Virus record (IMG/VR): IMGVR_UViG_2703718804_000005 | Length of the DNA stretch: 9,161 nucleotides | Direction: 5' to 3' (one strand) | DNA from: a virus | Taxonomy: Duplodnaviria; Heunggongvirae; Uroviricota; Caudoviricetes | Shown here: positions 2,504-9,161 of the stretch, one piece after another | Layout of the letters: each line of letters starts with the position of its first letter | How positions within the stretch are numbered: the stretch's first letter is position 1 | Program-made: the position numbers and the translations under genes | The notes under the pieces: generated by a model | The model's input: only the letters and a program-made list of their open reading frames with translations | What the model was told of the DNA's origin: nothing | Databases searched by the model: none

Positions 2504-5500
2504 ATGGGTAAAGGCAGCAGTAAGGGGCATACCCCGCGCGAAGCGAAGGACAACCTGAAGTCCACGCAGCTGCTGAGTGTGATCGATGCCATCAGCGAAG
2601 GGCCGGTTGAAGGTCCGGTGGATGGATTAAAAAGCGTGCTGCTGAACAGTACACCTGTGCTGGACAGTGAGGGGAATACCAATATCTCCGGCGTCACGGT
2701 GGTGTTCCGGGCCGGTGAGCAGGAGCAGACACCGCCGGAGGGGTTTGAATCCTCCGGCTCCGAGACGGTGCTCGGTACGGAAGTGAAATACGACACGCCG
2801 ATCACCCGGACCATCACGTCGGCAAACATCGACCGTCTGCGCTTTACCTTCGGTGTGCAGGCACTGGTGGAAACCACCTCAAAGGGTGACCGGAATCCGT
2901 CGGAAGTCCGCCTGCTGGTTCAGATACAACGTAACGGTGGCTGGGTGACAGAAAAAGACATCACCATTAAGGGCAAAACCACGTCGCAGTATCTGGCCTC
3001 GGTGGTGGTGGATAACCTGCCGCCGCGACCGTTCAATATCCGGATGCGCAGGATGACACCGGACAGCACCACAGACCAGTTGCAGAACAAAACGCTCTGG
3101 TCGTCATACACCGAAATCATCGATGTGAAACAGTGCTACCCGAACACGGCACTGGTCGGCGTGCAGGTGGATTCGGAGCAGTTCGGCAGCCAGCAGGTGA
3201 GCCGTAATTATCATCTTCGCGGGCGCATTCTGCAGGTGCCGTCGAACTATAACCCGCAGACGCGGCAATACAGCGGTATCTGGGACGGGACGTTTAAACC
3301 GGCATACAGCAACAACATGGCCTGGTGTCTGTGGGATATGCTGACCCATCCGCGCTACGGCATGGGGAAGCGTCTCGGTGCGGCGGATGTGGACAAATGG
3401 GCGCTGTATGTCATCGGCCAGAATTGCGACCAGTCGGTGCCGGATGGCTTTGGTGGCACGGAGCCGCGCATCACCTGTAACGCTTACCTGACCACACAGC
3501 GCAAGGCGTGGGATGTGCTCAGTGATTTCTGCTCGGCGATGCGCTGTATGCCGGTATGGAACGGGCAGACGCTGACGTTCGTGCAGGACCGACAGTCGGA
3601 TAAGGTGTGGACCTATAACCGCAGTAATGTGGTGATGCCGGATGATGGCGCGCCGTTCCGCTACAGCTTCAGCGCCCTGAAGGACCGCCATAATGCCGTT
3701 GAGGTGAACTGGATTGACCCGAACAACGGCTGGGAGACGGCGACAGAGCTTGTTGAAGATACGCAGGCCATTGCCCGTTACGGTCGTAATGTCACGAAGA
3801 TGGATGCCTTTGGCTGTACCAGCCGGGGGCAGGCACACCGCGCCGGGCTGTGGCTGATTAAAACGGAACTGCTGGAGACGCAGACCGTGGATTTCAGCGT
3901 GGGTGCTGAAGGGCTTCGCCATGTACCGGGCGATGTCATTGAAATCTGCGATGATGACTATGCCGGTATCAGCACCGGTGGTCGCGTGCTGGCGGTGAAC
4001 AGCCAGACCCGGACGCTGACGCTCGACCGTGAAATCACGCTGCCATCCTCCGGTACCACGCTGATAAGCCTGGTTGACGGAAGTGGTAATCCGGTCAGCG
4101 TGGAGGTTCAGTCCGTCACCGACGGACTTAAGGTGAAAGTGAACCGGGTTCCTGACGGCGTTGCAGAATACAGTGTGTGGGGGCTGAAGTTGCCGACGTT
4201 GCGTCAGCGCCTGTTCCGCTGTGTGAGTATCCGTGAGAACGATGACGGCACGTATGCCATCACTGCCGTGCAGCATGTACCGGAAAAAGAGGCCATCGTG
4301 GATAACGGGGCGCACTTTGACGGCGACCAGAGCGGCACGGTGAATGGTGTCACGCCGCCAGCGGTGCAGCACCTGACCGCCGAAGTCACCGCAGACAGCG
4401 GGGAATATCAGGTGCTGGCGCGCTGGGACACGCCGAAGGTGGTGAAGGGCGTGAGTTTCCTGCTCCGTCTGACCGTAACAGCGGATGACGGCAGTGAGCG
4501 GCTGGTCAGCACGGCCCGGACGACGGAAACCACATACCGCTTCAGGCAACTGACGCTGGGGCGTTACAGGCTGACAGTCCGGGCGGTAAATGCGTGGGGA
4601 CAGCAGGGCGATCCGGCATCGGTATCGTTCCGGATTGCCGCACCGGCAGCGCCGTCGCGGATTGAGCTGACACCGGGGTATTTTCAGATAACTGCCACGC
4701 CGCATCTTGCGGTTTATGACCCGACGGTGCAGTTTGAGTTCTGGTTCTCGGAAAAACGGATTGCGGATATCAGGCAGGTTGAAACCACAGCCCGCTATCT
4801 TGGCACGGCGCTGTACTGGATAGCTGCCAGTATCAATATCAGGCCGGGCCATGATTATTATTTTTACGTTCGCAGTGTGAACACCGTTGGCAAATCGGCA
4901 TTCGTGGAGGCTGTTGGTCAGCCGAGTGATGATGCATCCGGCTATCTGGATTTTTTCAAAGGCGAGATAGGAAAAACCCATCTGGCTCAGGAGCTGTGGA
5001 CGCAGATTGATAACGGTCAGCTGGCGCCTGATCTGGCTGAAATCAGGACGTCCATTACGGATGTCAGCAATGAAATCACACAGACCGTCAATAAGAAACT
5101 GGAAGACCAGAGTGCGGCAATTCAGCAGATACAGAAGGTTCAGGTTGATACAAATAATAACCTGAACAGCATGTGGGCTGTGAAGCTGCAGCAGATGCAG
5201 GACGGACGCCTTTATATCGCGGGTATTGGTGCCGGTATTGAGAACACCCCTGACGGCATGCAGAGTCAGGTGCTGCTGGCGGCGGACAGGATTGCGATGG
5301 TTAATCCTGCGAATGGCAACACAAAACCGATGTTTGTTGGTCAGGGCGATCAGATATTCATGAACGACGTGTTCCTGAAGCGCCTGACGGCCCCCACCAT
5401 TACCAGCGGCGGCAATCCCCCGGCCTTTTCCCTGACACCGGACGGAAAGCTGACGGCGAAAAATGCGGATATCAGTGGCAGTGTGAATGCGAACGCCGGG

Positions 5501-5983
5501 ACGCTCAATAATGTCACGATTAATGAGAACTGTCAGATTCTGGGAAAACTGTCAGCTAATCAGATTGAAGGCGATATTGTTAAAACGGTGGGTAAGGCTT
5601 TCCCCCGTGACTCCCGGGCACCGGAGCGGTGGCCGTCAGGGACCATTACCGTCAGGGTTTATGACGATCAGCCTTTTGACCGGCAAATTGTCATTCCGGC
5701 GGTGGCATTCAGCGGTGCCAGACATGAGAGAGAGCATAATGACATTTATTCATCATGCCGTCTGATAGTGCGGAAAAACGGTGCTGAAATTTATAACCGT
5801 ACCGCGCTGGATAATACGCTGATTTATACAGGTGTGATTGATATGCCAGCGGGTCGCGGTCACATGACGCTGGAGTTTTCGGTATCAGCGTGGCTGGTGA
5901 ATGACTGGTATCCCACGGCAAGCATCAGCGATTTGCTGGTTGTGGTGATGAAGAAATCCACAGCCGGTATCAGTATCAGCTGA
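2504..5983 (+). CDS. J: Central tail fibre / host specificity protein J (tip attachment protein)
   Basis: 1159-aa ORF starting [42 protein letters not shown], lambda gpJ-like in length and sequence character. It carries FN3-like segments around residues 620-800 and a helical Q/N-rich segment ([53 protein letters not shown]). SD-like GGAG/GAGGA lies upstream of ATG 2504; position follows I. Confidence 0.95.
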
Positions 5984-6002
5984 ATGTTCAGAAACCAGAC
6001 CG

Positions 6003-6030
6003 GGTGCCAGAAATGGCACCTTTTTTATTT
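6003..6030 (+). terminator. Rho-independent terminator between J and stf
   Basis: GGTGCCA (6003-6009), loop GAAA (a GNRA tetraloop), TGGCACC (6014-6020): a perfect 7-bp GC-rich stem followed immediately by TTTTTTATTT (6021-6030). It lies 20 nt after the J stop codon. Confidence 0.8.
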
Positions 6031-6041
6031 GTGGAACGAAT

Positions 6042-8627
6042 ATGGCAGTAAAGATTTCAGGCGTGCTGAAAGACGGTGCAGGTAAACCGGTACAGAACTG
6101 CACCATTCAGCTGAAAGCAAAACGTAACAGTACCACGGTGGTGGTGAACACGGTGGCCTCAGAAAATCCGGATGAAGCCGGGCGTTACAGTATGGACGTT
6201 GAGTACGGCCAGTACGGTGTCATCCTGCTGGTTGACGGTTTTCCGCCTTCACATGCCGGCACCATCACCGTGTATGAAGATTCTGAGCCGGGGACGCTGA
6301 ATGATTTTCTCGGTGCCATGACGGAGGATGATGCCCGTCCGGAGGCACTGCGCCGTTTTGAGCTGATGGTGGAAGAGGTGGCGCGTAACGCGTCCGCAGT
6401 GGCACAGAACACGGCAGCCGCGAAGAAGTCAGCCGGCGATGCCGGAACATCTGCCCGTGAGGCGGCAACCCATGCGACTGATGCTGCGGACTCAGCACGC
6501 GCCGCCAGCACGTCCGCCGGACAGGCTGCGACGTCAGCACAGGAAGCATCTTCCGGCGCAGAAACAGCCTCAGCAAAGGCCGCTGAGGCATCAAAAAGTG
6601 CTGCCGCTGCAGAGTCCTCAAAAAGCGCGGCGGCCACCAGTGCCGGTGCCGCGAAAACGTCAGAAACGAATGCGGCAGCGTCACAACAATCAGCCGCCAC
6701 GTCTGCATCCACCGCGACCTCGAAAGCGTCAGAAGCTGCCACGTCAGCCAGGGATGCGGCGGCCTCAAAAGAGGCGGCAAAATCATCAGAAACGAGCGCA
6801 GCCTCGAGCGCCGGTAGCGCAGCTTCCTCGGCAACGGCGGCAGGAAATTCCGCGAAGGCGGCAAAGACGTCTGAGACGAACGCCAGGTCTTCTGAAACGG
6901 CAGCGGAACAGAGTGCCTCCGCAGCAGCAGGCTCAGAAACTGCCGCTGCATCATCGTCCCGTGAGGCGTCAGTTAAAGCGGAGGAGGCCTCAGCCAGTGC
7001 CACCGCCGCCGGAAAATCGGCAGAAAGTGCCGCATTGTCCGCTTCAGCAGCCACAACGAAGGCTGGCGAAGCCACTGAACAGGCCACTGCAGCAGTGAGG
7101 TCTGCTTCCGCTGCGAGGACATCCGAGACGAACGCGAAAGCGTCGGAAACCCGTGCAGAATCTTCAGAAACGGCTGCCGTATCGTCCGCCAGTTCGGCGG
7201 CGTCATCAGCATCATCGGCGTCAGCTTCAAAAGATGAGGCGGCAAGGCTGGCGTCAGAGGCGCAGGGCAGTGCCACGACGGCATCCGCGAAGGCGACAGA
7301 GGCAGCTGGCAGTGCGACAGCGGCAGCACAGAGCAAAAGCACGGCAGAATCTGCGGCAACGCGCGCCGAGACTGCGGCAAAACGGGCGGAGGATATTGCA
7401 TCTGCCGTGGCGCTTGAGGATGCGAGCACGACGAAAAAGGGGATAGTCCAGCTCAGCAGTGCAACCAACAGTACATCTGAAACACTTGCCGCGACACCAA
7501 AGGCCGTAAAAGCCGCCTGTGAGAATGCTGAGAAACGACTGCAGAAAGATAAGAACGGTGCGGATGTCCCCGACAAAGACACCTTTACGAAAAATATTGG
7601 TGCCTGCCGTGCCTTCGGTGGGGCCGTAAGCACAACGACAGGAGACTGGACGACCGCACAGTTTATCGGGTGGCTGGATTCTCAGGGCGCATTTAACCAC
7701 CCATACTGGATGTGCAAGGGCTCCTGGTCTTACGGTAATAATAAAATCATCACGGATACGGGCTGCGGAAATATTCATCTCGCCGGCGCTGTCATTGAGG
7801 TGATGGGGATAAAGTCAGCGATGACGATCCGCATAACCACACCGACAACATCCAGCGGAAGTGGAACGGCGAATGCGCAGTTTACCTATATTAATCATGG
7901 TGATGGTTATTCCCCTGGCTGGCGTCGTGACTACAACACGAAAAACAAGCCACCGGCCTTTGCGCTGGGAAAAACCGGGGAAACGCTCGCCGATACAGAT
8001 GCCGTCGCCTGGAACCTGGACAGTGGCGCTTATTGTGCACAGGATGGTGGCGCATCATCCTTAATTCTTCATTTTAATACAGGGGAAGGCAGCTGCCCCG
8101 CGGTCCAGTTTCGGGTGAATTACCGGAATGGCGGGATATTTTACCGCTCCGCCCGTGATGGCTATGGCTTTGAGGCGGACTGGGAGCGTCTGTTCACGAC
8201 AACGGGCGGGACCCTGGAAGGTGCTGTGGGTATCGGTGCACAGAATACGCTGGGCGGCCATTCACTTGCGCTGGGGAGGGGCGACACAGGCCTGAAACAA
8301 AACGGCGACGGTAATCTTGATGTTTACGCCGGTAACGCACGTGTAATGCGCTTTACAAACGGCAGCATTCAGGTCAGTAAAGGGCTGAATGTGTCCGGGC
8401 GCGTTAATCCTTCCGATTACAGTAATTTTGATATCCGCTATGTCAGGGATATCCGGCTGGGCACGCGTGTTGTTCAGGGCATGCAAAAAGGCGTGACGTA
8501 TGAGAAATCCGGCCATGTCATTACGGGGCTTTGTCTTGTCGGGGATGCTGATGGCGATAACTCAGCGGTTTACCGGCCGGTGCAAAAATACATAAACGGC
8601 ACATGGTTTAACGTATCGCAGGTATAA
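6042..8627 (+). CDS. stf: Side tail fibre protein (Stf-like): conserved N-terminal tail-attachment region, Ala/Ser/Thr-rich shaft, divergent C-terminal distal domain
   Basis: 861-aa ORF. The N-terminus MAVKISGVLKDGAGKPVQNCTIQLKAKRNSTTVVVNTV...DGFPPSHAGTITVYED is lambda Stf-like from memory. The widely shared fibre junction motif GIVQLSSATNSTSETLAATPKAVK is encoded at 7440-7511. The gene sits downstream of J and is followed by tfa. Confidence 0.9.
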   Translation: MAVKISGVLKDGAGKPVQNCTIQLKAKRNSTTVVVNTVASENPDEAGRYSMDVEYGQYGVILLVDGFPPSHAGTITVYEDSEPGTLNDFLGAMTEDDARPEALRRFELMVEEVARNASAVAQNTAAAKKSAGDAGTSAREAATHATDAADSARAASTSAGQAATSAQEASSGAETASAKAAEASKSAAAAESSKSAAATSAGAAKTSETNAAASQQSAATSASTATSKASEAATSARDAAASKEAAKSSETSAASSAGSAASSATAAGNSAKAAKTSETNARSSETAAEQSASAAAGSETAAASSSREASVKAEEASASATAAGKSAESAALSASAATTKAGEATEQATAAVRSASAARTSETNAKASETRAESSETAAVSSASSAASSASSASASKDEAARLASEAQGSATTASAKATEAAGSATAAAQSKSTAESAATRAETAAKRAEDIASAVALEDASTTKKGIVQLSSATNSTSETLAATPKAVKAACENAEKRLQKDKNGADVPDKDTFTKNIGACRAFGGAVSTTTGDWTTAQFIGWLDSQGAFNHPYWMCKGSWSYGNNKIITDTGCGNIHLAGAVIEVMGIKSAMTIRITTPTTSSGSGTANAQFTYINHGDGYSPGWRRDYNTKNKPPAFALGKTGETLADTDAVAWNLDSGAYCAQDGGASSLILHFNTGEGSCPAVQFRVNYRNGGIFYRSARDGYGFEADWERLFTTTGGTLEGAVGIGAQNTLGGHSLALGRGDTGLKQNGDGNLDVYAGNARVMRFTNGSIQVSKGLNVSGRVNPSDYSNFDIRYVRDIRLGTRVVQGMQKGVTYEKSGHVITGLCLVGDADGDNSAVYRPVQKYINGTWFNVSQV
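6390..7440 (+). repeat. Low-complexity Ala/Ser/Thr-rich degenerate repeat region encoding the stf shaft
   Basis: About 350 codons dominated by GCN/TCN/ACN/GAR codons. The unit (A)-K/R-T-S-E-T-N-A recurs at 6651-6680, 6861-6887 and 7113-7136, spaced 210 and 252 nt apart (70 and 84 codons, both multiples of 7). The region is free of stops in all three forward frames and on the antisense strand. Confidence 0.6.
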
Positions 8628-8630
8628 GTA

Positions 8631-9161
8631 ATGCAGCACTTAAAAAATATTACAGCAGGTAATCCCAAAACCGTTGCTCAGTATCAACTGACAAAAAATT
8701 TTGATGTTATCTGGTTGTTTTCAGAGGACGGAAGAAACTGGTATGAAGAAGTGAGTAACTTTCAGAAAGACACAATAAAGATGGCTTACGATGAAAACAA
8801 TATTATCGTTGCCATCACCCGGGATGCCTCAACGCTTAATCCGGCGGGATTAAGTGTTGTTGAGGTGGCAGATATAACGGCGAACCGCCGTGCAGACGAT
8901 TCGGGGCAGTGGATGTATCTGGACGGTCAGGTGAGGAAACGCGAGTATTCGTCAGAGGAAGTCAACAGACAGACAGAGCAACGCAAGGCCACGCTGCTCA
9001 GTGAAGCAGATACCATCATCCGGCTTCTGGAGCGGTCGGTAAGGCTGAGTATGGCCACGGAAGAAGAGCGAACCCGGCTGTCGGCATGGGAGCGTTACAG
9101 CGTCCTGCTCAGCCGGGTGGATTCAGCGAACCCGGAATGGCCACAAAAGCCAGAGCAGTAA
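8631..9161 (+). CDS. tfa: Tail fibre assembly protein (Tfa-like chaperone)
   Basis: 176-aa ORF immediately after stf (3-nt gap), with AGGT 8 nt upstream of the ATG. The C-terminus [33 protein letters not shown] matches the conserved Tfa C-terminal motif as I remember it from lambda Tfa (of the form LEAWKKYRVLLNRVD...EWP). The stop codon TAA is the last three bases of the window. Confidence 0.85.

Follow-up and report, generated by a model that had tools for sequence, protein, structure and literature searches.

A Mu/P2-type tail fibre assembly gene and its mosaic side tail fibre partner at the right end of a lambda-like Escherichia coli prophage

That lambda-, Mu-, P2- and P1-like phages exchange fibre tips and their chaperones is textbook material, recognised since the early 1990s. 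For phage Mu, passages in two papers (PMC9608196 and PMC7291167), each citing the 5YVQ work, attribute the binding of the fibre tip to the N-terminal domain of Tfa, and the receptor of the Mu fibre is given as being of the LPS type (PMC7291167). The stf and tfa genes described here are very probably a standard, fixed tail-fibre tip and chaperone pair located at the right end of a lambda-like Escherichia coli prophage.

The whole stretch of DNA analysed (the window, 9161 bases) corresponds to the distal part of a lambda-like tail operon, and strong Pfam matches were obtained for all of its genes. The following features were recognised:

129–458: gene M, Pfam match.
458–1156: gene L, Pfam match.
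End at 1904: gene K, Pfam match.
1802–2443: gene I, Pfam match.
2504–5983: gene J, Pfam match.
6042–8627, plus strand: stf, complete, 861 aa, mosaic side tail fibre gene, uninterrupted ORF.
6042–7019, plus strand: proximal part of Stf (aa 1–326), lambda Stf type (PF08400, E = 5.9e-73; 85% identity to aa 1–326 of lambda orf-401, the lambda Stf).
7602–8281, plus strand: distal shaft of Stf (aa 521–746), Mu S / P1 S / P2 H type.
8282–8627, plus strand: distal tip of Stf (aa 747–861), co-inherited with the tfa N-domain.
8631–9161, plus strand: tfa, 176 aa, Mu U / P2 G / P1 U type (ORF, Pfam, PHROG and PDB matches).
8631–8900, plus strand: N-terminal domain region of tfa (aa 1–90), AT-rich (GC 0.33–0.36) and best conserved.
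8901–9161, plus strand: linker and C-terminal helical domain region of tfa (aa 91–176), GC-rich (GC3 0.67–0.70).

The genome of E. coli ARS-C301 (NZ_CP132983.1) differs from the window by only two SNPs, at positions 2384 and 3080. Position 2384 (6985 of the ARS-C301 locus) lies in tail gene I, where the window has CAG and ARS-C301 has TAG, so that the gene is truncated in ARS-C301 and intact in the window. The region comprising the distal part of stf and tfa was covered to at least 80% in 33 of 5426 complete E. coli genomes. The gap between J and stf in the window (5983–6042) is 58 bp long and does not contain lom; an Ail/Lom gene is found between J and stf in another prophage with the same cassette (L010, 217–816). 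A viral-database contig with an identical tfa also ends exactly on the tfa stop codon, and for this reason the window edge may be a provirus-prediction boundary.

The tfa ORF starts with ATG at 8631 and stops with TAA at 9159–9161, closing on the final base of the window and encoding 176 aa. On re-reading, the ORF, translation, C-terminal motif and terminal position of the stop given by an earlier sequence-only reading of this DNA proved exact in every respect. The protein matched the Pfam family Caudo_TAP (PF02413) with E = 1.9e-29 and 102.9 bits (profile cut-off 22.1 bits) and PHROG 136 over its full length (E = 7.9e-72). It aligned collinearly and gap-free, residues 1–175 to 1–175, with the characterised Mu gpU (PDB 5YVQ_B; E = 1e-84, 74% identity), both the N-domain and the C-domain being present, and it showed 70–78% identity across aa 1–175 to P2 G, P7 U' and many P2-like Tfa proteins. 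In addition, the tfa ATG lies directly 3' of the stf stop at 8627, on the same strand, and the fibre encoded there has a tip of the cognate type. With lambda Tfa the alignment was confined to aa 113–174 (40%, E = 1e-10), with none N-terminally, and the whole-length homology expected of a lambda-type Tfa was not found. The predicted tfa product is a Caudo_TAP tail fibre assembly protein of the Mu U / P2 G / P1 U subfamily. Nothing speaks against this identification; the identity along Tfa is uneven and amounts to only about 50% at aa 96–140.

The protein itself is already known and holds nothing new. It is deposited in exactly this form as WP_001164144.1 in RefSeq (GpG in one depositor's naming), under the title 'MULTISPECIES: tail fiber assembly protein [Escherichia]', on 843 contigs. 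From its 74% identity to Mu Tfa and the literature (PMC9608196, PMC7291167), it would be expected to act as a chaperone that binds the fibre tip and is needed for folding of the trimer.

The sequence-only reading had taken the N-terminal half of Tfa for a divergent part. On the contrary, this half is the best conserved part of the protein, with 80–89% identity to the Mu, P2-like and P1-like proteins. Residues 1–29 are identical to those of Tfa of phage 520873, and residues 1–87 show 83–87% identity to P2-like and P1-like Tfa and 80% to Mu U, as compared with 66–67% to relatives for residues 88–176. At aa 1–90 the identity to relatives was 82–89%, and the N-domain gave dN values of 0.05–0.11 against dS values of at least 0.9, indicating purifying selection. 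At the nucleotide level, identity to P2-like phages reached its peak of 0.83–0.90 at 8616–8795 and went down to 0.60–0.67 at 8900–9035. Residues 96–140, approximately, were only about 50% identical to each of 52 distinct relatives (viral contigs), and identity to relatives was 72–86% at aa 141–176. Codons 91–140 gave dN values of 0.37–0.41 against relatives and just 0.03–0.10 between the relatives themselves, so that this segment is not a generally fast-evolving one. The truly lineage-specific part of Tfa is aa 96–140, approximately, and not the N-terminus.

The same picture was obtained when the two halves were searched separately, as the sequence-only reading had proposed. In E. coli genomes the N half returned 1763 records, 325 of them at 80–90%, and the C half 1030 records with 0 between 80% and 95%; in the phage collection 68 records at 80–90% were found for the N half and 0 above 80% for the C half, the C half being the less conserved. 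The N-terminus is divergent only when lambda Tfa is taken as the yardstick. The C-terminal motif had rightly been called typical of the family, since lambda Tfa aligns just there (aa 113–174) and many distant phage Tfa proteins match only aa 92–175, approximately; the matches to the Tfa of Gifsy-1, SfV, APSE and Klebsiella phages were confined to the last 60–80 residues. Of a uniform similarity of the whole Tfa to one known protein, which that reading had also considered, the full-length and gap-free alignment was found with Mu U, but the degree of identity varies along the protein.

The lowest GC content of any 180-nt stretch in the window was found at 8631–8810 (0.344; mean 0.564, sd 0.054, z = −4.0), and the lowest value anywhere before 8400 was 0.456. 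The 5' part of tfa is therefore AT-richer than the upstream operon, as had been noticed before, though the trough begins in the stf tip. The block of low GC3 starts at about 8282 within that tip, not at the tfa ATG, and ends at about 8900 inside tfa: GC3 was 0.36–0.40 from 8282 in the tip and 0.33–0.50 in the N-terminal part of tfa, then 0.67–0.70 from about 8900, matching the upstream lambdoid genes (0.65–0.69). The AT-rich 5' part of tfa and the stf tip form one compositional block.

The AT-richness is not peculiar to this gene. The first 180 nt of tfa had a GC content of 0.29–0.36 in every relative examined (a P2-like prophage, both tfa copies in a P1-like plasmid and both in phage 520873) and, being common to all of them, the AT-rich 5' end is an inherited trait of this Tfa subfamily. 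The GC content at codon positions 1 and 2 was 0.36–0.41 in the N half versus 0.44–0.55 in the C half, and amino acid composition thus contributes to the AT-richness. The low GC content of this part results from a strongly constrained N-domain rich in K, N, I, Y, D and E, together with low GC3, and is not a mark of divergence. Because the AT-rich stretch coincides with the gene's most constrained part, it should be read neither as a sign of divergence nor as one of recent import.

Separate PHROGs families exist for the two parts of the protein, PHROG 24494 matching aa 1–92 alone and PHROG 3792 aa 101–175 alone, which places the break in conservation and composition at the domain boundary; a break inside tfa at this point fits a two-domain model of Tfa. 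The break could also mark a recombination junction (at about nt 8900, codon 90 or so), tfa being a chimera in which an stf tip and Tfa N-domain of the Mu/P2 type were joined to the linker and C-domain of an unsampled, GC-richer Tfa lineage. The step in GC3 at about 8900, from 0.33–0.50 to the upstream lambdoid level of 0.67–0.70, the fall in nucleotide identity to relatives at the same point (from 0.83–0.90 to 0.60–0.67) and the high dN of codons 91–140 against relatives (0.37–0.41, with 0.03–0.10 among them) are consistent with such an event. The two separate PHROGs families also indicate that the Tfa domains occur in other combinations, and the U' proteins have the N-domain in common (66–68%) and not the C end (18–21%). 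However, dS values are saturated throughout, from about 0.9 to above 2 and with the N-domain included, so that no segment of tfa is demonstrably younger or older than another. A search of 5.8 billion proteins with aa 96–176 returned 24 candidate donors of the C part, with nothing closer than 70% outside its own cluster; E. coli genomes contained 0 at 80–95%. A separate scan of genome contigs for relatives gave 107 pattern matches, 0 of them confirmed, and contributed no information. Drift of the linker in this lineage together with amelioration of GC3 could yield the same picture. A chimeric origin is accordingly put forward as a tentative reading, on the doubtful side of even. If it holds, the two Tfa domains would be naturally exchanged independently of each other, and the C-domain may be adapted to a partner other than the fibre tip.

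Distal to its lambda-type proximal part, Stf resembles fibres of another kind. Residues 521–732 matched the Mu fibre S/S' (PDB 8JU3_A) with E = 1.1e-104, and the distal shaft showed 71% identity to P1-like Sv' and 59% to P2-like H. For residues 717–861 the identity to the variable fibre part (Sv) of phage 520873 was 67%, the last 65 residues were 80% identical to a P2-like H tip, and residues 759–859 matched the Mu S tip in its complex with Tfa (5YVQ_A, E = 5e-16). In agreement with the earlier suggestion that the distal part of stf and tfa travel as one cassette, the similarity in DNA to P2-like phages runs unbroken over the stf/tfa boundary (8282–9154) and a single block of low GC3 extends from 8282 to about 8900. 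The expectation that the N-terminal part of Tfa is matched to its cognate tip was likewise supported by 53 unique tip/Tfa pairs, in which the Tfa part whose identity followed that of the tip most closely was the N-domain (Spearman 0.67, OLS coefficient 0.96; Tfa middle 0.32, C end 0.49, both Spearman); the pairs are of the U type only (tip identity 66–100%, 0 minus-strand U'/Sv' pairs), and a correlation of this kind also arises from physical linkage and shared ancestry. The result agrees with the role of the N-domain in Mu Tfa (PMC9608196, PMC7291167).

In all nine genomes seen (9/9), stf is annotated by PGAP as a pseudogene ('missing C-terminus'). The annotation stops at codon 521, and about 1 kb of the 3' part of stf (window 7605–8630; stf itself occupies 10643–13231 of the ARS-C301 locus) is left unannotated. 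The ORF is intact, with 861 aa in the 8 other genomes whose length was checked, and the homology to Mu S and P2 H continues in a single frame across the end of the supposed pseudogene. The label looks like an annotation artefact of a mosaic fibre; such systematic mis-annotation of stf as a truncated pseudogene could mislead predictions of host range. An antisense ORF of 482 aa (window 6185–7633, minus strand) lies over the Ala/Ser-rich repeat region of stf, and several further long ORFs overlap the same region; these most likely arise from the biased composition of the repeats and are not genes.

Downstream of tfa, the ARS-C301 genome contains 264 non-coding bases, followed by ydfJ without its N-terminus, ydfI, ydfZ and other core genes. 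The prophage end at ydfJ is the integration site of Qin in K-12, the last 155 bp or so before ydfJ being 94.5% identical to the Qin end, and the full tfa–ydfJ junction is common to 14 genomes. Four further end sites were found: tRNA-Ser next to hyaA, dusA (with a DinI-like gene and an integrase), yecD/aspS, and uspF/ompN (the Rac site). In ARS-C301 and 8 other sampled loci, representing the five sites, no further phage gene follows tfa before the prophage end or host DNA is reached. The first 89 bases or so after the tfa stop, which are non-coding, are the only stretch common to all 33 genomes.

The stf–tfa cassette is at least 98.8% identical in lambdoid prophages at five chromosomal sites (L001, L003, L008, L010 and L011), and some genomes have several copies of it, in up to 4–5 places per record, which suggests that the fibre module is frequently exchanged among resident prophages. 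In E. coli MEI7BO1-21 (L013, 1–1547), genes for an enterotoxin A-family protein and an enterotoxin are located directly 5' of a truncated fibre-gene fragment, which is accompanied by a tfa of the present lineage and followed by an IS66 element; the toxin cargo beside the cassette is located at the Rac site.

Invertible segments are well represented among the relatives. P7 U' lies in the C-segment, a P1-like plasmid has U, U' and Sv' together with a recombinase, and phage 520873 has an invertase. Downstream sequence of at least 3.5 kb was available for 55 related viral loci; 18 of these had an inverted tfa' starting 34–35 nt from the stop, and 11 had an invertase in the part of the locus covered. 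In K-12 Qin, at the same ydfJ site, pinQ stands next to tfaQ. With an inverted tfa' in 18 of 55 related loci and the complete invertible architecture in P7, the P1-like plasmid and phage 520873, it was reasonable to consider, as the sequence-only reading had done, that the stf tip and tfa are one side of a host-range switch that works by inversion (Mu G, P1 C or e14 P type), with an inverted alternative tip and tfa' and a serine invertase, or moron cargo, just past the window edge.

The downstream DNA, however, is of a different kind. In the 9 sampled loci from five integration sites, tfa is followed by the 89 shared non-coding bases and then by the prophage end or host genes, and none of these loci has an annotated invertase. 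By tblastn, the Cin-like invertase and that of phage 520873 found nothing across the 25.7-kb ARS-C301 locus, and U', tfaB, Sv', the tip and two invertases gave no significant match in 1.5 kb of downstream sequence from five contexts. A 26-nt crossover site derived from phage 520873 had 0 matches in the window at up to 3 mismatches, the crossover core AAACCNNGGTWT was absent from stf, tfa and the tail of the ARS-C301 locus, and no inverted repeat bracketing the tip and tfa was found. Of the features of invertible host-range segments such as Mu G, P1/P7 C, e14 P and p15B Min, neither an adjacent serine invertase of the gin/cin/pin family, nor an inverted tip/tfa' set, nor a pair of inverted crossover sites of about 26 bp with one site in the fibre gene accompanies the genes. 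The downstream extension that the sequence-only reading had proposed thus gave no inverted tfa', invertase or crossover site, and the prophage end and host DNA found in place of a cassette or cargo, at five sites, are the outcome which that reading had itself named as contradicting it. That the pair is half of a switch is hardly credible any more, and the presence of an alternative set or cargo just past the edge is just as extremely improbable. The stf–tfa lineage found here is of the fixed kind, and the invertible reading is refuted at this locus.

A candidate relic of an inverted tfa' was noted in two other contexts, 113–157 bp after the stop, as the minus-strand peptide HVKSITAGN (tblastn E of about 0.1–0.2). 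It was rejected: the DNA belongs to a non-coding element of prophage ends that occurs in 5396 of 5426 genomes without ever carrying a tfa annotation, it is missing from the near-identical ARS-C301 locus, and its geometry is unlike that of a classic invertible segment. Of the 5426 complete E. coli genomes, 5396 have a non-coding segment of about 170 bp near lambdoid prophage ends, with a median of 3 copies per genome that are mostly 80–90% identical; in some cases the segment borders on a DinI-like gene. It is located as follows:

L010, 4052–4218: prophage-end segment of about 170 bp.
K-12 (L014), about 4404–4571: the same segment.

The compact end of the present prophage might also be secondary, a pin-type invertase (with ydfK/ynfT-like genes) having once followed tfa and been deleted later. 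The terminal arm is homologous to that of Qin, in which about 1.7 kb with pinQ, ydfK and ynfT lies between tfaQ and the arm. But tfaQ is a lambda-type and not a Mu-type gene, so that the Qin module and the present one are not orthologous; moreover, the direct junction of tfa with the 89 bp recurs at five different integration sites, and no relic of pin or tfa' was detected in 1.5 kb downstream of tfa in five contexts. A later deletion is for these reasons considered unlikely.

A hairpin is located 55–92 nt after the tfa stop (13817–13854 of the ARS-C301 locus) and is kept in five prophage contexts. It has 13 pairs, 2 of them with compensatory changes, and a folding z-score of just −1.6; it has no U-tract, and an Rfam scan of the tail gave no family match. 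No terminator with a U-tract was found within the prophage after tfa, the sole pattern match being inside ydfJ. The hairpin could be an operon-end terminator or an RNA-stabilising structure.

On the basis of the gene identities, mosaic boundaries, conservation and composition profiles and downstream context, all of them observed directly, a mode of action may be proposed for the fixed pair by homology to Mu. The lambda-type proximal third of Stf would presumably mount the fibre on the lambdoid tail, and its distal two-thirds, like the Tfa that follows, are of the Mu S–U / P2 H–G / P1 S–U type. By analogy with Mu Tfa, the N-domains of Tfa would bind the distal tip of the nascent Stf trimer, and the C-terminal helical domain would gather the three chains, promoting trimerisation and thereby folding of the fibre. 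Tfa would probably stay on the virion, attached to the finished fibre. As with Mu (PMC7291167), a receptor of the LPS type is likely for Stf. The late operon would be transcribed to a point shortly after tfa, the prophage itself ending 264 bp downstream at a Qin-type junction in ydfJ. Beyond correct annotation, the importance of these findings is small.

Among the known systems, lambda Tfa (orf-194) and K-12 TfaQ and TfaR resemble the present Tfa in that they follow stf as the end of a lambdoid late operon and in their homologous C-terminal 60 aa or so (40%), and Qin occupies the ydfJ site that is also used by the present prophage. In contrast, the N-terminal 110 aa or so of lambda Tfa are unrelated (no alignment) and the lambda tip resembles T4 gp37 and not Mu S; in Qin and Rac tfa is followed by a pin gene (for PinQ and PinR), which the present prophage lacks. 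The P1/P7 C-segment is similar in that P7 U' is 75% identical to the present Tfa and that the N-domain is common even to the alternative U' (66–68%), but it differs in being invertible, with a Cin recombinase and large inverted repeats that the present locus lacks.

The P2 pair gpG/gpH and its P2-like counterparts (phage 520873, Yersinia phage vB_YpM_22) show contiguous DNA similarity of about 76% from the last 115 or so fibre codons through tfa, 71–78% identity over full-length Tfa and up to 80% in the last 65 aa of the tip, and have the same AT-rich 5' end of tfa. They belong to a myovirus baseplate, and their tfa is followed by a moron site, tail sheath genes or an inverted tfa'. With dS of at least 0.9, the split from the P2-like lineage is ancient and does not reflect a recent transfer. 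In the Mu pair U/S, Tfa is of the same length and aligns gap-free, with 80% identity in the N-domain, just 52% at aa 101–140 and 83% at the C end; the tip and shaft of the present fibre are Mu S-like, and tfa lies directly downstream of the fibre gene in both. The Mu pair is located in the invertible G segment of a myovirus, with U', S' and the Gin invertase, whereas the present pair is fixed and belongs to a lambdoid (siphovirus-type) tail operon with a lambda-type Stf N-terminus.
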